This document shows positions 21,779-29,429 of a DNA stretch of 64,000 nucleotides, in pieces (the stretch's first letter is position 1; the number at the start of each line of letters is the position of its first letter). A program made the translations under genes and the position numbers. The notes beneath the pieces were generated by a model, which was given only the letters and a program-made list of their open reading frames with translations, was not told the DNA's origin and searched no databases. This stretch comes from an uncultured beta proteobacterium (GTDB lineage: Bacteria; Pseudomonadota; Gammaproteobacteria; Burkholderiales; Usitatibacteraceae). The stretch covers positions 1,106,680 to 1,170,679 of the forward strand of contig CAVOQC010000001.1 in the NCBI GenBank assembly GCA_963698265.1. Reading direction: 5' to 3'.

Positions 21779-22672
21779 ATGACGATGGCAAGAAAGACGA
21801 AGCGCGCGAAGGCAGGGGACGAGGTTCTCGCCGACGCAAAGGAAGCGGACCGGATCGAGCAGTACTGGCATCTCGCGGGCCGCCCGAAGGCGCGCAAGCC
21901 GCCGGCGAAGTACAAGTACGTGAAGGAACTCGCCCATCTGCAGGTCGAGTTGATCAAGTTGCAGGAATGGGTGCGCCTGCAGGGCCTCAAGGTCGCCGTG
22001 ATCTTCGAGGGCCGCGACGCCGCCGGCAAGGGCGGCGTGATCAAGCGCATCGCCGAGTGCCTGAACCCGCGCATCTGCCGGATCGTGGCGCTGGGCACGC
22101 CCACGGAGCGCGAGCGCGGCCAGTGGTACTTCCAGCGCTACGTCCCGCACCTGCCGGCGCAGGGCGAGATCGTCCTCTTCGACCGCAGCTGGTACAACCG
22201 ATCCGGCGTGGAGCGCGTCATGGGCTTCTGCACCGAGACGGAGTACCGGGAGTTCCTGCGCTCCTGCCCGCTCTTCGAGGAGATGCTCATCCGCTCCGGC
22301 ATCGTGCTGGTGAAATACTGGTTCTCCGTGAACGACGAGGAACAGGAGCGGCGCTTCCAGGAGCGAATCAGGAACCCCACGAAGCGCTGGAAGCTGAGCC
22401 CCATGGACATCGAGTCGCGCAAGCACTGGAGCGAATATTCGCGGGCCAAGGACATCATGTTCGCGGCAACCGACCGGAAGCAGACGCCGTGGTGGGTGGT
22501 CGATGCCGACAACAAGAAGCGGGCGCGCCTGAACTGCATCGCGCACCTCCTGCGCCAGGTTCCCTACGAGAACATGACGCCCGTGGAGATCGAGGTGCCG
22601 CCGCGTCAGGGAGACATCGGCTACCGGCGGCCGAAGAAGTCGAGCCAGCGCTTCGTGGAGAGCGTCTACTAG
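21779..22672 (+). CDS. ppk2: Polyphosphate kinase 2
   Basis: VIFEGRDAAGKGGVIKRI (Walker A), FDRSWYNRSGVERVMGF, KLSPMD, WWVVDADNKKRARLN. Confidence 0.92.
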   Translation: MTMARKTKRAKAGDEVLADAKEADRIEQYWHLAGRPKARKPPAKYKYVKELAHLQVELIKLQEWVRLQGLKVAVIFEGRDAAGKGGVIKRIAECLNPRICRIVALGTPTERERGQWYFQRYVPHLPAQGEIVLFDRSWYNRSGVERVMGFCTETEYREFLRSCPLFEEMLIRSGIVLVKYWFSVNDEEQERRFQERIRNPTKRWKLSPMDIESRKHWSEYSRAKDIMFAATDRKQTPWWVVDADNKKRARLNCIAHLLRQVPYENMTPVEIEVPPRQGDIGYRRPKKSSQRFVESVY

Positions 22673-22694: not shown

Positions 22695-25600
22695 CTAGGG
22701 GCTCGCCCGGCGGGCCCTCGCGATGTCGGCGCGAAGATTCGCGCCGGTCTTCCACTTGCTCAGGGCCGGCGCGATGCTGTCGAGGACGGCGGTGGCCTCG
22801 GCGAGCAGCGCGGCGCGCCTGGCCGGCTCGGCGAGCGCCGAAACATAGACGGCGTGGGCGTACTCGAAGTGCTGCAGGTGGGAATCGTGGCGGCGCGCGA
22901 GCTGCTTGCGATGGAACTCGAGCGCCGGCTGCAGGATCTCGCGCGCCTCCGCCAGCCGCCCCTGGCGCGCGACGGCCTCGGCGAGGTACACCTGGAACAC
23001 GGCGCCTTCGCGCTCGGTCCCGAACAGGTCACGGCGCGGCAGCTTGGCGTGCTCGGCGACCATGACGCGTGCCGCCGCTTCCGCGGCCGCGAAATCGCCC
23101 AGCTCCAGGGACGCGAGGCCGATGATCTGGCTGGCGCGGATGCGAAAGCGGCCGAACCACTCCACGTCGGCCTGGCTCTCGGGCTTGATGTCGCCCAGCC
23201 CCCCCAGCGCGGTTCGCGCCTGCTGCAAGGCCTTTCGCGGGTCGCCCTCGAGGTACGGCAGGTACGCCTCGTAGGCTTCGAGCCACAGGCGCGAGAAACC
23301 GACGATCATCGGCGCGGAAGTCGGCTTGATGTACGTCTCCCACAGGCGCCGGCTTTCCGCGACCGTGGCCTTCGCCGCTGCATGGTTGCCGAGCTCGGCG
23401 TCGATTTCCGCCGAGATCCCCAGCCAGATCATCGCGTTTCGCGCCTGGAAGGAGCCGATCTTGGGCATCTGCTCGCGCACCTGCGCGGCGGAGCGGAACT
23501 TGTCGCGTGCCTCGGCGAGGCGGCCCGACTCCATGAGGGCGCCGGCCGTTCGCTGCCGCGCCACGCCCAGGTTGTTCAGGGAGGCCGTATTGGTGGAGGC
23601 GACCTTCACCATGCCTTCGTAGAGGGCCTCGTTCTCGCGCAGGAGCACCATCGCCTTCGCGATCCGCAGGTCGAACACCTCCAGGTCGGAGAGGGCGCCG
23701 AGCACGAGCCCCTTGGTGTGGATCGCCGTCGCATGGCCGGGCATTGCGTCGAGGACCTTGTTGGCGATCGCGAGCGACTCCTCGTTCTTCGCGCGGGACT
23801 CGGGCCACTTGCCCGTATCGTAGAGCGCGTCAGCGAGCCACGCGCCGGCGTTGGAATAGCCGGCGGCGGCCGAGAGGTCCGCGAGGCCCGGCGCGCCCAG
23901 CCGGCGGAAAACCTCCTGGGCCTCCTGCAGGTAGCCGATGGCTTTCCGGGCATCCCCGAAATTGCGCGTGGTGTAGCCCATCCCGGTGAGCAGCTCTCCG
24001 TACTGGCGAAGCACCGCGACCGAAGGCTTGGGCGAGGCCTCGACGAGCGGCTTCAACTCGGCCTGCGCGGCTTCGCCGGCGCGCAGGGCCTCCGCGTGCT
24101 TGAGCTGGTTCACGAGAATCATCGCCTGGTAGCTCAGGGCGCTGCCCAGGCCCAGGCGCGTGGCTTCCGACGAATCTCCCTGGGAGCCCAGCCGGCGGAA
24201 GACGGCCTCGGCTTCCTTCAAGGCGACGAGCCCCTCCTCGTGCTTGCCCTGGCGGCGCGCGACGGCGCCGGCGCGCACGAGCGCCATCGCGCGGTTGCGC
24301 TCCGTGTCGGGCGTGCGAAGTTCCGGGGGCAGGCCCTTGTAGTAGTCGAGGGCGCGATGGGCGAGCGAGGCCACGATGTCGATCCGGCCGACGGGATCGA
24401 GTTCGCGCACGAAATCGTCGAGCAGGTAGACGAGGAGCTTCTCGGACTCGCCGCGCGCCGACTCGGCCAGCTGCCGCGTCTGCTGGGCCTTCGCTTCGGC
24501 TTCCTTGGCGCGGTTCATGTTCACGTAGCCGAAGACGGCGCCAACCACCGCGAGTATCGCAAGCACGGAGGCGCCCGCGGCCACCTGGCGTGCGCGCACC
24601 AGCGCCTTGCGCGTGGCGGCCTCGCGCTCGCGCTGGGCCTCGAGCTGGCGCTCGGCGTTCTCGCGCGCCTCGCGCGCGAGCCGCATCTCGCGGCTGGCGC
24701 GGACGACCCCGCACAGCACGTCGTGGGTGAGCTCCACGCGGCGCACGTCGAGGCGCTCCTCGATGCGCAGGAGCCGCCGGTTCACGAGCGTGGGCAACGC
24801 ATCCGGGGAGGCGCCCGCGGCTTCGAACGCCTTCACCACGCGTTCCTCCGCGAGGCTCTCTCGGTAGCCCGAGTCCGTGAGCAGCTCGTCCTCGATCACC
24901 TTGCGCACCGCCGGCGGCTGGTCGGCGAGCACGCGCTCGTAGAACTCGGCGAGGATCGTGTCGTGGGAGCCCGCCAGCAGGTCTGCGGAGATCTCCGCGC
25001 GGCCCTGGGCGAGGCGCGTGTTGTTGAGTTCCCGGCAGATGAGCGACAGGAGCGAGGGCTCGACCTCGGCGTTGCGCAGCTCCGAGCCCCCGGCGATGAA
25101 GCGCACGATCGCCTCGGCCACCTCTTCCGAGACGAGATCGCCGCCCGGCTTCATCACGGCGGAGAGCGCCTGCTGGCCGTTCATGCGGGCAAGCCGCATG
25201 CGATTCTGGGTGATCGAGGGCATTGCGCCCTTGAGCCCCTCCAGGTGCGCGAGGTAGTCCTCGCGCAGCGCGATGAGGATGCGGTAGTCGGCGCGGCCGA
25301 AGTCGAAGCGCTCGGGAACGGAATCGTCCGACTCGAGCTTCGCCTCGAGCGCCTTCGGGGGCCGGTTCTCCACGAGGTCGGCGAGATCCTCGATGAACTG
25401 CGCGGCGCGCGCCTTGCCTGCATCGTCGGCCTGGGCGAGCGTGAAGACCTCCTCGAACTGGTCGAAGATCAGCAGCGGAATGACGGTCTTGCCGCTGGCG
25501 TCCTTCAGGATGTCGTCGCGGTGGTGCAGGAACTCCCAGAGCGATTCGCCCTCGGCCGCCGTGCCCGGCTGCGTCCACGTTCCCGAGGACTGCGTCGCGC

Positions 25601-25934
25601 GGAAGATCGCCGCCTTGATCTGCTCCGTGGGCGGCGGCGAATCCGGCGAATAGTCGACGCGCACGTAGACGGGGCAGTACCCCTCCGGCCGCAGCCTCGG
25701 CACGATGCCCGCGCGCAGGATCGAGGTCTTGCCCAGGCCCGACTGGCCGAAGAGGATCGTCAGGAGCTTGCGCTGCACGCGCCGGCCAAGCTCGGCGACC
25801 TCCTCTTCGCGGCCATGGAAGAAGCCGCGCGTTTCCTCCGTGTACGAGGCGAGGCCCAGCCAGGGATGCTGCGGGTCGATCGCGGGGGAAGACCCCGGCG
25901 CCGCGTCCTGCGCCTTCGCGGTCTCCGCGCTCAT
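22695..25934 (-). CDS. STAND-type P-loop NTPase (nSTAND-like) with internal TM helix and TPR-like C-terminal half
   Basis: N-terminus PWLGLASYTEETRGFFHGREEEVAELGRRV-x-LLTILFGQSGLGKTSILRAGIVPRL (Walker A at 25722-25748). Walker B VIPLLIFDQFEEVF. Helical/winged-helix region ending RRVELTHDVL. Coiled coil, then hydrophobic helix VAAGASVLAILAVVGAVFGYV (24522-24584), then about 600 aa of TPR-like repeats. The start ATG overlaps the upstream TGA (25931-25934). The track ORF extends to 26213, but that extension overlaps the upstream gene. Confidence 0.85.
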   Translation of the reverse strand: MSAETAKAQDAAPGSSPAIDPQHPWLGLASYTEETRGFFHGREEEVAELGRRVQRKLLTILFGQSGLGKTSILRAGIVPRLRPEGYCPVYVRVDYSPDSPPPTEQIKAAIFRATQSSGTWTQPGTAAEGESLWEFLHHRDDILKDASGKTVIPLLIFDQFEEVFTLAQADDAGKARAAQFIEDLADLVENRPPKALEAKLESDDSVPERFDFGRADYRILIALREDYLAHLEGLKGAMPSITQNRMRLARMNGQQALSAVMKPGGDLVSEEVAEAIVRFIAGGSELRNAEVEPSLLSLICRELNNTRLAQGRAEISADLLAGSHDTILAEFYERVLADQPPAVRKVIEDELLTDSGYRESLAEERVVKAFEAAGASPDALPTLVNRRLLRIEERLDVRRVELTHDVLCGVVRASREMRLAREARENAERQLEAQREREAATRKALVRARQVAAGASVLAILAVVGAVFGYVNMNRAKEAEAKAQQTRQLAESARGESEKLLVYLLDDFVRELDPVGRIDIVASLAHRALDYYKGLPPELRTPDTERNRAMALVRAGAVARRQGKHEEGLVALKEAEAVFRRLGSQGDSSEATRLGLGSALSYQAMILVNQLKHAEALRAGEAAQAELKPLVEASPKPSVAVLRQYGELLTGMGYTTRNFGDARKAIGYLQEAQEVFRRLGAPGLADLSAAAGYSNAGAWLADALYDTGKWPESRAKNEESLAIANKVLDAMPGHATAIHTKGLVLGALSDLEVFDLRIAKAMVLLRENEALYEGMVKVASTNTASLNNLGVARQRTAGALMESGRLAEARDKFRSAAQVREQMPKIGSFQARNAMIWLGISAEIDAELGNHAAAKATVAESRRLWETYIKPTSAPMIVGFSRLWLEAYEAYLPYLEGDPRKALQQARTALGGLGDIKPESQADVEWFGRFRIRASQIIGLASLELGDFAAAEAAARVMVAEHAKLPRRDLFGTEREGAVFQVYLAEAVARQGRLAEAREILQPALEFHRKQLARRHDSHLQHFEYAHAVYVSALAEPARRAALLAEATAVLDSIAPALSKWKTGANLRADIARARRASP
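24522..24584 (-). other. Predicted single transmembrane helix inside the STAND NTPase (residues about 451-471)
   Basis: 21 uncharged residues VAAGASVLAILAVVGAVFGYV, flanked by RKALVRARQ on the N-side and NMNRAKE on the C-side. Confidence 0.6.
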
Positions 25935-27328
25935 GCGCCGCCCCGGCCGCCGGTGCTCGTGAGCTCCTTCAGGCGGTTCACGAACTCCGGGGTTGCGGCG
26001 CCACCCGGCAACTGCGTGAGGTGCACGGCCTTGAACTTGTCGGGCACGCGCGCGCCGCGCGGGTCCGTGTCGTCGATGCACACCGGCAGGATGAAGATCG
26101 CCTCGTCGGCCATGTTGCGCGTGCGGTCCAGTGCGTAGCTCCATTCGCGGCGGAAGTAGGCCTCCAGCCGGCGGTCCGTCGTGGCGGAGACCACCGGGAT
26201 GAAGTAGGAGCATCGCGCGATGTTCTTCTGGATCTTGCGGTCGTAGTCGTCGCCGCCTTCGAGCCGGTCCATGTCGAACCAGGTCGTGATGCCGGCGGCG
26301 TCGAGCCCGCTCTTCAGTTTCTGCACGGCCGCGAGATCCTCGCGCGCGTAGCTCACGAAAACCGCGTTGTCGGGCATCTCGCGCTCGGGCGGCAGGAAGC
26401 GCTGCGGTGCCGCGCCCAGCGCGATCACCTCGCCCGGCTTGCGCCGCGCCGTCCAGCGGCGATGCAATTCGTCCACGAACTGCTCGGCGCCGCTGTAGAC
26501 GCGGGTGCGCACGCTCACCTGCTGGAGAAACGCCATCAGGCGATCATCCTGGTCGGAATGGTCGTCGGCGAGCACTTCGCCCACGTCGCGCGGGTCGGAG
26601 AGCCGCCGGCGCTTGGCCATGCGCAGGAACAGGCGCGCGAGCCAGTTCGAGAAGTTGCTGCCGATGAGGAGCAGGTGGCTGTGCTCGAGCTCGTAGAAGA
26701 GCTTCTCGGGCGTCAGGTGCTCGCTCTGCAGCGCGCAGACGAATTCGAGCACGTCCTCGTCGGAGATCACGTAGGTGGGCGAGGCAGAAACGCGGCCGAG
26801 CAGGTGGTAGACCACGGGCCGCTGCAACTGCTCGCGCTCGCCCGGCAGGTCCGCCACGCGGTTGGGCGCGTAGCTCACGACCTCCGTGGACTGGGCCCCC
26901 GCAAACCTCGTCTCGTTGATCGCCTGCTCGAGGAAGGTATCGAAGGTGGTCGAGACGAAGAGGTCGAAGTCGGTGATCTCGGCGAGCTGGCGAAGCGCCT
27001 TCGGCGGCGCGAAGTTCGTGTCGCGCAGGATGGCGCGCATGCGCGTGTAGGTGTCCTCGCGGCGCCCGCGCGCGGAGAGGAACCAGCAGACGACGTCGTT
27101 CAGCGTGTAGGGCTGCGGCAGGCGCGTCGTGTCCACGCCGAGCTTCGCGGCGAGCTTTTCCGCCATCCAGTCGTAGAGCAGGCGCGGGCCCGATTCCGTC
27201 TCGACCTTGAGGAGTTCCGGGCCGACGATGGGAATGACGCGTCTTTCCTCGATGAAGTCGAGGAGATCCTCCCAGGCGTCCTCGTCCAGCGTGGGCAGCG
27301 GCGTTTCGAGCGCGTGCACGTTGCTCAC
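25931..27328 (-). CDS. SIR2-like (SIR2_2-type Rossmann) domain fused to a C-terminal TIR domain
   Basis: The N-terminal domain shows the SIR2_2 motif order with substitutions: VIPIVGPELL, FVSTTFDTFLE, PVVYHLLGRV, LLLIGSNFSNW. The C-terminal TIR is VFVSYAREDLAAVQKLKSGLDAAGITTWFDMD...YFIPVVSATT...EAYFRREWSYAL...ILPVCID. Confidence 0.85.
   Translation of the reverse strand: MSNVHALETPLPTLDEDAWEDLLDFIEERRVIPIVGPELLKVETESGPRLLYDWMAEKLAAKLGVDTTRLPQPYTLNDVVCWFLSARGRREDTYTRMRAILRDTNFAPPKALRQLAEITDFDLFVSTTFDTFLEQAINETRFAGAQSTEVVSYAPNRVADLPGEREQLQRPVVYHLLGRVSASPTYVISDEDVLEFVCALQSEHLTPEKLFYELEHSHLLLIGSNFSNWLARLFLRMAKRRRLSDPRDVGEVLADDHSDQDDRLMAFLQQVSVRTRVYSGAEQFVDELHRRWTARRKPGEVIALGAAPQRFLPPEREMPDNAVFVSYAREDLAAVQKLKSGLDAAGITTWFDMDRLEGGDDYDRKIQKNIARCSYFIPVVSATTDRRLEAYFRREWSYALDRTRNMADEAIFILPVCIDDTDPRGARVPDKFKAVHLTQLPGGAATPEFVNRLKELTSTGGRGGA
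25994..26368 (-). other. TIR domain (residues about 321-445) with candidate catalytic Glu395 (codon 26144-26146)
   Basis: (F/V)(V/I)SY...D start motif, and the S-x-W-x-x-E-like region aligned to FRREW. Confidence 0.7.
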
Positions 27329-27551: not shown

Positions 27552-29429
27552 ATGAAGCATGAGACGCCCGGCGCGGGAAACGCCGCGGAGGACAGCGCCG
27601 AGGAGGCGAGCGCGCGTGCGCAGCGCGAGCTCGATCGAGGCGAGCCGCTGCTCGCCTGCAACACGGCGCAGGCGGCGCTGGACCGCTGGCCGGAGCATGC
27701 GCGCCTGCGGCAACTTCACGCCCTGGCGCTGGTGCGAAGCGGCGACCTCGAGCGCGCGAACCGGATCCTCGCCGCGCTGGCCGCTGAGGGCAGGGACGAC
27801 GCGGAGACCCTCGGGATGCTCGCGCGCACCCACAAGGATCTCGCGCTGCGCGAAGCGGAAGGGCCGCGGCGCCGCGAGCACCTCGAGGCGGGATTCAGCC
27901 TCTACGAACGGGCCTTCGAATCGGCGCGCAAGCGCGGCGCCGTGGCGGACGCGTCCTACACCGGCATCAACGCGGCGACGATGGCGGTCTTCATGGACGA
28001 CCTCCCGGGCGCGCGCCGGATCGCTTCCGCCGTGCGGGAGGCGTGCGGACGCGACGAGGGCCGCAAGGCGCCCGAGCCGGCGCGCTACTGGAGGGAGGCC
28101 ACCCTCGGGGAGGCGGCGCTGATTCTCGGCGATGCCGGGGAGGCGGGCGTGCGCTACCGCAAGGCGAGGCTGCTCTCGGGCAAGCGCTTCGGGGATCTCG
28201 GCACCACGCGCCTGCAGGCGCGACGGCTTCAGGCGCGCCTCCCCGCGACCGGCGTGGACGTGGACGCGCTCCTCGCCGTTCCGCCGGTGCTCGTCTTCAC
28301 CGGCAACATGGTCGATGCGCCGGAGCGGGAGGCTGGCCGATTTCCGGCCGCGCTCGAGCCGGCGGTGCGCGAGGCGCTGCGCGAAGCCCTCGCTGCGATC
28401 GCCCCTCTCGCGGTGTACGGGTCCGCCGCCTGCGGAGCCGACATCCTCTGCCTGGAACTCGCGCGCGAGCGGGGAGCCGAGACCCACGTCGTGCTGCCGT
28501 TCCCGCCCGCGGAGTTCCGGCACGCGAGCGTCGATTTCGCCAGCGGCGACTGGGGCGAGCGATTCGAGCGGGCGCTCGCCGCGGCCCACAGCGTGACGGT
28601 GGCGAGCGACCATCGCGCGAGCGGCAGCGCGGCCTCCTTCGAGTACGCGAACCTCATCGCCACGGGCATGGGGCGGCTGCGGGCGCAGGTGCTCGACGCC
28701 CCGCTGCGCGCGCTCGCGGCGTGGGATGCCGGCGTGCCGGCGTCGCCGGGAGGTGCGGCCTCGGTCGTCTCGCTGTGGCGCTCGCGCGGAATCACCGTGG
28801 ACACGGTGGACCTCGCGGCGTTGCGCGCGGACGAAGGCTCGCCCGCTTCCGCGACGCCGGCGGCTTCCGTAGCGGCGACCGACGGCGCCACGCGCCACGA
28901 GCTGCGCGCGATGCTCTTCGCCGACGCCGTCGGCTACAGCCAGCTGAGCGAGGACCAGATCCCGCGCTACATCTCCGGCTTCCTCGGGGCCGTGGCCGAG
29001 CTGAGCCGGAAGACCGCGCACCCCTTCGAGCACGTCGAGACTTCCGGCGACGGGCTCTACATGGTGTTCGCGACCGTGGCCGACGCGGGCCAGTTCGCCC
29101 TCGAGCTGAGCGCGCTCGCCAACGGTCTCGACCGCGCGGCCTGCGGCCTGCCGGAGCGCTTCAACCTGCGCATCGCGCTGCACTGCGGCCCGGTGCACTG
29201 CGGGCGCGACCCCATCACCGGTTCGCGCCTCTACACCGGCCCGCACACCAGCCGCACGGCGCGAATCGAGCCGATCACGCCGCCGGGGCAGGTCTACGCG
29301 AGCAGCGCCTTCGCCGCCGTTGCCGCGGCGAGCGGCGCCGACGGGCTCGCGATGGGATATGTCGGGCGCATGCCGCTCGCCAAGGGATACGGTACGCTCG
29401 GCCTGTACCACGTCCGTCCGGCCCACTGA
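27552..29429 (+). CDS. Three-domain signalling protein: TPR-like (MAP3K TRAF-binding/DUF4071-like) + Rossmann SLOG-like + class III nucleotidyl cyclase
   Basis: N-domain motifs ETLGMLARTHKD, YTGINAATMAVF, RYWREATLGEAALILGD. Middle domain VLVFTGNMVDAP...RFP...LAVYGSAACGADILCLELARERGAETHVVLPF. C-terminal cyclase domain (28899-29411) MLFADAVGYS...ETSGDGLYMVF...LRIALHCGPV...GPHTSRTARIE. Confidence 0.85.
   Translation: MKHETPGAGNAAEDSAEEASARAQRELDRGEPLLACNTAQAALDRWPEHARLRQLHALALVRSGDLERANRILAALAAEGRDDAETLGMLARTHKDLALREAEGPRRREHLEAGFSLYERAFESARKRGAVADASYTGINAATMAVFMDDLPGARRIASAVREACGRDEGRKAPEPARYWREATLGEAALILGDAGEAGVRYRKARLLSGKRFGDLGTTRLQARRLQARLPATGVDVDALLAVPPVLVFTGNMVDAPEREAGRFPAALEPAVREALREALAAIAPLAVYGSAACGADILCLELARERGAETHVVLPFPPAEFRHASVDFASGDWGERFERALAAAHSVTVASDHRASGSAASFEYANLIATGMGRLRAQVLDAPLRALAAWDAGVPASPGGAASVVSLWRSRGITVDTVDLAALRADEGSPASATPAASVAATDGATRHELRAMLFADAVGYSQLSEDQIPRYISGFLGAVAELSRKTAHPFEHVETSGDGLYMVFATVADAGQFALELSALANGLDRAACGLPERFNLRIALHCGPVHCGRDPITGSRLYTGPHTSRTARIEPITPPGQVYASSAFAAVAAASGADGLAMGYVGRMPLAKGYGTLGLYHVRPAH

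Follow-up and report, generated by a model that had tools for sequence, protein, structure and literature searches.

A clade of predicted membrane-spanning nSTAND1 proteins encoded beside SIR2-TIR proteins in diderm bacteria

Gene Content of the Locus

We examined a 64,000-nucleotide stretch (the window) of contig CAVOQC010000001.1, from an uncultured bacterium of the Usitatibacteraceae, focusing on one gene for a STAND protein (signal transduction ATPase with numerous domains) and on the gene directly upstream of it, which encodes a protein with SIR2 and TIR domains. The open reading frame (ORF) that an initial annotation had placed at 22695-25934 is present on the minus strand and encodes 1079 amino acids plus a stop. 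The gene and its parts, given in window coordinates, are as follows.

22695..25934, minus strand: complete gene for the nSTAND1-transmembrane-TPR (tetratricopeptide repeat) protein (ORF and translation; 1079 aa plus stop)
24633..25865, minus strand: nSTAND1 NTPase module, residues 24-434 (Pfam PF20703, E=5.2e-33)
25722-25748, minus strand: Walker A motif GQSGLGKTS, residues 63-71 (invariant in 66 homologues)
25449-25475, minus strand: Walker B motif LLIFDQFEE, residues 154-162 (invariant in 66 homologues)
24585..24719, minus strand: Arg/Glu-rich long helix or coiled coil joining the NTPase to the predicted membrane helix, residues 406-450 (AlphaFold2 helix 391-449)
24522..24584, minus strand: predicted single transmembrane helix, residues 451-471 (mean Kyte-Doolittle hydropathy over 19 residues, KD19, 2.35; kept in relatives)
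24255..24521, minus strand: conserved juxtamembrane module, residues 472-560 (77% pairwise identity)
22698..24254, minus strand: variable TPR-like alpha-solenoid, presumed ligand-binding ectodomain, residues 561-1079 (AlphaFold2, Foldseek, 38-46% identity)

The ATG of the STAND gene overlaps the TGA of the upstream SIR2-TIR gene (ATGA overlap, GCATGAGC), and homologues have the same start site. A longer version starting at an ATG at 26213 was rejected as a high-GC artefact that overlaps the upstream gene; similar long shadow ORFs occur on both strands of the window. Near-identical proteins (96-100%) are encoded in metagenome-assembled genomes (MAGs) of Betaproteobacteria, where the public annotation is “hypothetical protein.” Searches of NCBIfam and PHROGs with the STAND protein returned nothing useful, a sequence search of PDB chains found no related chain, and scans for promoters and terminators gave nothing above chance.

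The Pfam match to nSTAND1 scores 115.6 bits against a cut-off of 27.1 and covers profile positions 1-367 of 379, in agreement with the nSTAND-like module initially assigned to residues 1-440. Each motif named for that module (PWLGLASYTEETRGFFHGREEEV, the two Walker motifs, and VELTHDVL, here at residues 400-407) is found in the translation. The coiled coil proposed to follow the winged-helix region is likewise recovered, as a single modelled helix at residues 391-449 that is well conserved among homologues, and its RKALVRARQ flank just before the hydrophobic helix is nearly invariant. Only 23 variable residues precede the NTPase, and the protein has no N-terminal signal sequence. No effector domain is fused to the nucleotide-binding oligomerization domain (NOD); the effector candidate is the separate, overlapping upstream gene.

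A Conserved Hydrophobic Helix Follows the NTPase

The uncharged 21-residue stretch described for residues 451-471 (24522-24584), VAAGASVLAILAVVGAVFGYV, matches the translation exactly in sequence and coordinates. Its KD19 of 2.35 compares with 1.35 for the next best window of the protein. Because Ala, Val, and Leu are abundant in this protein, some residue shuffles match the helix (an uncharged run of 21 residues is attained in 4.5% of them), and in the single sequence the signal is only modestly significant, suggestive rather than conclusive. It is the conservation of the helix across homologues that makes it credible.

Homologues keep the helix. When the 120 top-ranking homologues, proteins of about 1080 aa with 54-96% identity, were compared, 119 had the hydrophobic segment at the same position; the exception (P0071) has a short deletion within it. 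We then used only residues 1-440 as the query for a search of 1.84 billion cluster representatives; 25,585 matched at E<=1e-3, and 2,577 of them reached E<=1e-30. Among the best 150 matches (47-86% NTPase identity), 141 were long enough to judge, and 124 of these have a segment with KD19>=1.8 located 15-95 residues past the THDVL motif, compared with 5.7 expected from composition-matched shuffles. Several of the 17 negative proteins score 1.5-1.79 or are fragments, and another such hydrophobic segment occurs anywhere in only 4 of the 141. In a second independent sample, made up of relatives of a divergent protein with a cytochrome c-like C-terminal half (P0217, see below), 78 of 80 have the helix. 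The length of the uncharged run is also constrained, with a median of 22 residues and a range of 19-28 across 125 proteins. The helix first noticed in the query is therefore present and conserved, but many other genes share it; it is the defining feature of a large clade whose members number thousands of proteins.

What follows the helix is far less constant. Post-helix sequences range from about 100 to 1900 aa and fall into at least 20 unrelated clusters, with domains that include query-type TPR, WD40 propellers, FGE-sulfatase, PDZ, Sel1, PPC, DUF2610 with TPR, VWA, and PEGA. Since the helix is kept before unrelated domains, it travels with the NTPase and not with a particular sensor. The distribution points to an arrangement of nSTAND1, one hydrophobic helix, and a variable module as ancestral to the clade. 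A few relatives have no helix, for example P0238 (1087 aa), a close nSTAND1 relative in which a TPR-S sensor is fused straight onto the NTPase; this suggests that the helix was gained or lost along with the type of sensor. One further protein, P0303, was listed as carrying SIR2_2 and nSTAND1 and was considered as a Rosetta-stone fusion. In it, nSTAND1 precedes SIR2 and a further P-loop, an order suggestive of read-through between tandem genes, and the protein was not used.

The substitution pattern within the helix is also informative. A452, L458, and A462 are invariant, C/A455, A456, A459, A466, F468, and G469 are nearly so, and the remaining positions vary among apolar residues only. Conservation follows an alpha-helical periodicity (moment 0.22 at 100 degrees, compared with a permutation mean of 0.095; p=0.008), and A452, C/A455, A459, A462, A466, and G469 form a conserved face of small residues. 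Such a face is a signature of tight helix-helix packing and suggests that the transmembrane helices associate, either constitutively or upon activation. Judged from this pattern, the segment looks like a transducer more than an anchor.

Past the helix, the initial annotation had described about 600 residues of TPR-like repeats, and three lines of evidence agree with it. An AlphaFold2 (AF2) model built from 66 homologues (mean predicted local distance difference test score, pLDDT, 81) has, after the helix at 391-449, a second helix at 467-512 and then about 27 antiparallel helices arranged in hairpins to the C-terminus. The C-terminal ~570 aa of this solenoid are modelled at pLDDT >90; confidence is low at residues 447-466, the membrane-helix segment. 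Foldseek comparison of the full model with PDB returned TPR solenoids only (LGN, NOT10, Ski3), which are generic eukaryotic matches with no informative relative among them, and Pfam TPR_12 has weak matches after residue 548 (E=4e-11).

Mean pairwise identity among the 66 homologues is 84% in the NTPase, 80% in the pre-helix coiled coil, 65% in the helix, 77% in the juxtamembrane module (residues 472-560), 46% in the middle solenoid, and 38% in the distal solenoid. The contrast between a conserved NTPase and a divergent distal solenoid is the pattern expected of sensor-like evolution. We also considered the juxtamembrane module as a universal transducer element and rejected this, as its profile matches nothing outside the TPR family of ~1080 aa (89 of 240 relatives).

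Predicted Topology of the STAND Protein

If the helix spans the membrane, the distribution of charge around it should indicate its orientation. The Arg and Lys residues initially noted on its N-terminal side are a general feature: when 15 residues were counted on each side in 125 proteins, the N-side flank averaged 5.9 Lys plus Arg (net charge +4.4) and the C-side flank 3.4 (net +1.2). The N side had more in 111 of the proteins, the two sides were equal in 13, and the C side had more in one, as the positive-inside rule would predict for a cytoplasmic N-terminal half. The same orientation, N-in and C-out, is indicated by the lack of a signal sequence together with a P-loop NTPase that needs cytoplasmic nucleotide. 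Because the hosts, Proteobacteria and Opitutae, are diderm, they have a periplasm that could receive the C-terminal half.

Some relatives carry domains after the helix that may serve as natural topology reporters. Covalent attachment of haem c, by cytochrome c maturation, happens exclusively outside the cytoplasm. P0217, which shares 53% NTPase identity with the query and has the same helix, contains five CXXCH motifs, all of them after the helix, and a Cytochrome_C554 match. Its gene (L086, 5001-8087) has SIR2-TIR and TPR-S genes upstream and is a single example, from a contig of 31 kb. A haem-c ectodomain on a STAND protein would be remarkable in itself, possibly as a redox or small-molecule sensor. 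Other relatives have TPR repeats, four PEGA domains, and CarboxypepD_reg (P0353), a PPC pre-peptidase domain (P0239), or Sel1 (P0257) in the same position. The cytochrome c, PEGA, and PPC domains are typical of the extracytoplasm, and their position would place the C-terminal half there.

Cysteine content points the same way. In the close family, Cys makes up 0.03% of residues after the helix and 0.68% before it, a depletion of about 20-fold, and 106 of 119 homologues have no Cys at all in residues 472-1079. This near-absence fits an oxidizing compartment.

Several observations weigh against a membrane span. In the query, the simple Hessa-scale sum for the helix is borderline (+0.15 kcal/mol) and 3.5% of residue shuffles attain its hydrophobicity. 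The C-side flank retains about three Lys or Arg per 15 residues. A search with P0217 for a second protein sharing its C-terminal half found none, leaving the cytochrome c fusion a singleton. A test for exported domains based on even numbers of Cys was supportive in the close family only, with no even bias among diverse relatives (68 even, 80 odd) or among those with WD40. Finally, many relatives have canonical WD40 arrays after the helix.

Weighing both sides, we infer that the helix is probably a genuine N-in/C-out membrane span. The topology first proposed, with a cytoplasmic NTPase, one span, and extracytoplasmic repeats, remains a prediction favoured by the conservation of the helix, the charge skew, the reporter domains, the Cys depletion, and the predicted solubility of the partner protein described below.

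A SIR2-TIR Protein Is the Constant Partner

The STAND protein had initially been given a TIR partner. A TIR domain is present in the product of the upstream gene, but this is not a plain TIR protein; Pfam identifies two domains, SIR2_2 and TIR_2.

25931..27328, minus strand: gene for the SIR2_2 and TIR_2 protein, presumed effector, 465 aa (Pfam; translationally coupled upstream of the STAND gene)
26522-26962, minus strand: SIR2_2 domain (Pfam E=8e-11, 42.6 bits, above the cut-off)
26015-26362, minus strand: TIR_2 domain (Pfam E=3e-18, 66.8 bits, above the cut-off)

The maximum KD19 of the SIR2-TIR protein is 0.93; it has no hydrophobic segment and is predicted to be soluble. Its TIR part matches PADLOC TIR effector models, and the TIR motif RREWSYALDR (residues 393-402) is invariant in 70 orthologues. 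Within it, the invariant Glu395 aligns with a residue that we take to be E77 of SPARTA. The SIR2 domain has an invariant TTFD (residues 126-130), and His175 is kept. The AF2 model of this protein is poor (pLDDT 50) because the alignment is shallow (homologues 79-100% identical).

A scan of one genome per species recovered at least 499 candidate stretches encoding TPR-type relatives, all in MAGs. The hosts are Casimicrobiaceae, Usitatibacteraceae, Steroidobacteraceae, Rhodanobacteraceae, other Burkholderiales, and a few Opitutae. We compared 85 loci. The SIR2-TIR gene is directly upstream of the STAND gene and on the same strand in 77 of them, is rearranged or spaced in six, and in two there is no upstream DNA. 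Surrounding genes vary between lineages, with a syntenic neighbourhood at locus L004. Across loci the SIR2-TIR protein is 68-87% identical, compared with 45-79% for the STAND protein. The pairing extends to six distant relatives with cytochrome c, PEGA, PPC, DUF2610 with TPR, WD40 with PDZ, and FGE-sulfatase modules: all six have an immediately upstream SIR2_2-TIR_2 gene, reduced to TIR alone in the WD40 with PDZ case (L090). As the SIR2-TIR gene is conserved upstream despite such different ectodomains, the cassette is a two-gene system. It appears to be built of a constant cytoplasmic core (SIR2-TIR, nSTAND1, and the predicted membrane helix) and an exchangeable outer module.

Some loci depart from the common arrangement. 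At L090 (1956-4004 and 9133-11515), IS110, ISL3, and IS3-family transposase genes flank the WD40 with PDZ relative, and the gene upstream of this relative encodes a TIR-only partner of 230 aa that insertion has possibly truncated. At L018, L023, and L029, an inverted fragment (residues ~10-290, the SIR2 half) replaces the intact upstream SIR2-TIR gene, and the cassette may be rearranged or decaying. Two MAGs carry two cassettes each (L066 and L080 in JOPF132; L024 and L050 in GL85_DN_concoct_176), which would fit a small set of paralogous receptors.

Neighboring Genes

A divergent neighbour of the cassette encodes a TPR-S domain, an unassigned middle domain of ~290 aa, and a class III nucleotide cyclase.

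27552..29429, plus strand: gene for the TPR-S, ~290-aa middle domain, and class III nucleotide cyclase protein (divergent neighbour)
27660-27983, plus strand: TPR-S domain (Pfam E=3e-19)
28893-29321, plus strand: class III nucleotide cyclase domain (Pfam Guanylate_cyc E=1e-5; aligns to solved cyclases)

The cyclase domain has the metal-binding Asp motifs. The middle domain contains a motif, YGSAACGADILCLELA, that has a Rossmann or SLOG-like look by eye only. A homologue of this gene adjoins the cassette in 17 of the 85 loci (in five it is upstream and divergent, in the other 12 it follows the cassette on the same strand), and a TPR-S-only gene lies beside the cytochrome-type cassette (L086). 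That the adjacency survives rearrangement suggests a functional link, and the TPR-S-cyclase protein is possibly a facultative third component of the system. At L001 (9183-11093), the public gene call is a 636-aa minus-strand ORF without a Pfam match, and tblastn shows a plus-strand TPR-S-cyclase homologue at this place; in DNA of such high GC content, the ORF called there is probably no more than a shadow.

On the other side of the cassette, a PPK2 polyphosphate kinase gene (21779-22672, plus strand) lies between the STAND gene and an aminotransferase gene. It is missing from the otherwise syntenic locus L004, which encodes a 79%-identical orthologue of the STAND protein.

Proposed Mechanism and Alternatives

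The initial annotation had proposed a receptor-like STAND protein that relays an envelope or periplasmic cue. The computational evidence supports this prediction and carries it beyond the query to a large clade in which the SIR2-TIR partner is constant. We place a probability of roughly 60% on a bitopic, inner-membrane receptor resembling the NOD-like receptors (NLRs), in which a periplasmic sensor controls a cytoplasmic NOD that activates the SIR2-TIR protein. The nSTAND1 NOD and the long charged helix would lie in the cytoplasm, the helix at residues 451-471 would cross the inner membrane, and the juxtamembrane module and the variable solenoid of ~520 aa would lie in the periplasm. A sensor beyond the membrane cannot contact or autoinhibit the NOD; control by ligand-induced clustering or by re-packing of the helix is therefore the most economical inference. 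Upon ligand binding, the ectodomains and transmembrane helices would cluster or re-pack and bring the cytoplasmic NODs together. These would bind or exchange nucleotide and form an oligomer at the membrane, which would then recruit the SIR2-TIR protein, a co-translated, soluble, putative NADase, or switch it on. By consuming NAD+ or making an NAD-derived signal, this protein could then cause arrest or death of the cell. The cue would probably be an envelope-borne molecule that is foreign or linked to damage; phage tail or ejection proteins, other invaders, and injury to the envelope are examples.

Other observations count against this mechanism and against the immune role that it implies. We know of no precedent for transmembrane control of a STAND protein and of no trigger for this one. 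The STAND protein matches no PADLOC family at E<=0.1, models of Avs and other defence STAND proteins included. Neighbours of the cassette are housekeeping genes, there is no composition anomaly and no obvious defence island, and the NTPase and the SIR2-TIR protein are unusually conserved for defence genes. In the SIR2-TIR protein, an HMMER alignment puts Ala399 in the register of the catalytic Glu of AbTir and SARM1, and the SIR2 motif reads TTFD where the family consensus is presumably TTNYD.

The strongest alternative keeps the topology and changes the purpose. The cassette could be a housekeeping or stress device that monitors the envelope or periplasm, or recognizes kin or contact, and adjusts NAD metabolism or growth through SIR2-TIR, possibly with the TPR-S-cyclase. 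This would accommodate the housekeeping surroundings, the conserved synteny, the normal composition, and the high conservation of the NTPase and of SIR2-TIR, the latter across classes. It would also sit well with the sheer number of species-representative genomic stretches that carry the cassette, the missing PADLOC model for the STAND protein, a nucleotide cyclase gene as frequent neighbour, and a multihaem cytochrome ectodomain that suggests redox sensing. We nevertheless consider it unlikely. SIR2 and TIR domains on the partner of a STAND protein are hallmarks of conflict systems (PADLOC TIR matches; Kaur et al., 2021). Entire ectodomains have been exchanged and the distal solenoid evolves quickly, a pattern shared with sensors of the antigen-receptor kind. 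Some MAGs have two cassettes, and one relative lies among insertion sequence elements.

Alternatively, the periplasmic solenoid might be a tether or guard, docked on a host envelope machine such as peptidoglycan or an outer-membrane or secretion complex, with the STAND protein firing when this guardee is disturbed. Large periplasmic TPR proteins are commonly scaffolds (BcsC, PgaA, LpoA, BamD), and the strong conservation of the juxtamembrane module (77%) could reflect such docking. The PEGA and Sel1 ectodomains of relatives belong to types described as cell-wall-associating (Kaur, 2020). Against a guard, conservation along the protein is lowest in the distal solenoid and ectodomains are replaced by unrelated folds, and both facts fit diverse ligands better than one conserved guardee; we regard this explanation as improbable.

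Least probable is that both halves are cytoplasmic and the helix is buried, a peripheral or monotopic anchor, or a latent membrane-damaging effector segment deployed after STAND activation: the borderline Hessa sum of an Ala/Gly-rich segment, its low AF2 confidence, the residual positive charge on the C-flank, the lack of even-Cys bias in diverse relatives, and the WD40 and FGE-sulfatase modules (sensors that have been described on cytoplasmic STAND proteins) all lean that way, but are outweighed by a 19-28-residue stretch that is apolar on all faces in >300 proteins and varies among hydrophobic residues only, by the strong positive-inside skew, by the haem-c, PEGA, and PPC domains after the helix, by the nearly Cys-free C-terminal half of the close family, and by the fact that a single 21-residue helix is too short for a re-entrant hairpin.

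If the NLR-like receptor reading is right, its consequences reach beyond this locus. More tentatively, diderm bacteria may have a large modular family of periplasm-facing pattern-recognition receptors, hybrids of NLRs and Toll-like receptors (TLRs), with interchangeable ectodomains that detect a threat before it reaches the cytoplasm and signal through STAND clustering to SIR2-TIR. The cues detected may include tail or ejection proteins of phages, predators that enter the periplasm, such as Bdellovibrio, and injected toxins. Pattern recognition would then take place in the envelope, as early as the first step of an infection or attack, and bacteria may have immune-type receptors that face outward into it. 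Since the sensor cannot autoinhibit the NOD across a bilayer, such a STAND protein would have to be controlled as Toll-like receptors are, through induced proximity or through signalling by the helix. The family is large (the genomic matches above are for the TPR type alone) and modular, has a constant two-gene core, and is a possible scaffold for engineered periplasmic biosensors.

Comparison with Known Systems

STAND and NLR-like conflict systems are already known; newly described here are a clade with a helix between the NTPase and the sensor and its constant SIR2-TIR partner. In the parts of the published accounts available to us, the bacterial NLR-like (STAND) immune sensors characterized so far are soluble and detect phage proteins inside the cell. 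The initial annotation's statement that characterized Avs and NLR-like sensors are cytoplasmic holds for this literature, with the qualification that Kibby et al. speculated that bacterial NACHT proteins bearing transmembrane (TM) segments may sense intramembrane or periplasmic signals. Their “TM regions” class of bNACHT proteins has multiple TM segments and is based on prediction only. Doré et al. predicted a periplasmic location for one NACHT/C-type-lectin target of a diversity-generating retroelement, and a cytoplasmic one for nSTAND1 targets (Thiohalocapsa). In the text consulted, a 2026 survey that covers 589 STAND clades treats sensing as something that happens “inside cells.” Overall, the literature on membrane-anchored or periplasmic STAND proteins gave hints only, and the sources searched, as far as their text was accessible, describe neither a TM helix between an nSTAND1 NTPase and its sensor nor a pairing with SIR2-TIR.

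The query shares with Avs and bNACHT proteins a STAND NTPase switch, a large C-terminal TPR-like sensor, a SIR2/TIR-type effector, and a conserved constant module joined to a variable sensor. It differs in the predicted TM helix between NOD and sensor and in having its effector in a separate gene, where Avs and bNACHT proteins have an N-terminal fusion. Also close are the nSTAND1 conflict systems. Kaur et al. (2021) gave the nSTAND1 clade its name and connected it with effectors that include TIR and caspase. These systems (Kaur, Burroughs, Iyer, and Aravind, 2021) share with the query and its relatives a clear nSTAND1 NTPase, TPR, WD40, and FGE-sulfatase sensors, and TIR-type effectors; the predicted post-NTPase TM helix and the constant SIR2-TIR partner set the query apart. 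The partner resembles Thoeris and other SIR2/TIR defence effectors that target NAD+ in having TIR_2 and SIR2_2, and it weakly matches models or structures of ThsB, of TIR effectors, and of the SPARTA TIR. Unlike in Thoeris, both domains are in one protein; the ThsB matches are weak, ThsA is unmatched, and the canonical catalytic motifs are ambiguous.

In function, the nearest analogies are bitopic bacterial receptors and Toll-like receptors, both of which resemble the query in design without belonging to its family. ToxR/CadC, PknB-type Ser/Thr kinases, and anti-sigma factors have a large N-terminal cytoplasmic module, one internal signal-anchor helix, and a C-terminal extracytoplasmic sensor. 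By analogy with ToxR/CadC-type receptors, the topology predicted here would be biologically routine. The outputs differ, being DNA binding, phosphorylation, and sigma-factor release instead of STAND oligomerization and an NAD-targeting effector. With Toll-like receptors the query would share an ecto-solenoid, a single TM helix, and cytoplasmic TIR-based signalling; these receptors have a leucine-rich repeat ectodomain, a fused TIR, and no NTPase. There is no homology past the TIR fold, and the likeness would be an analogy in design and not family membership. Its most plausible element is activation through ectodomain-driven proximity.

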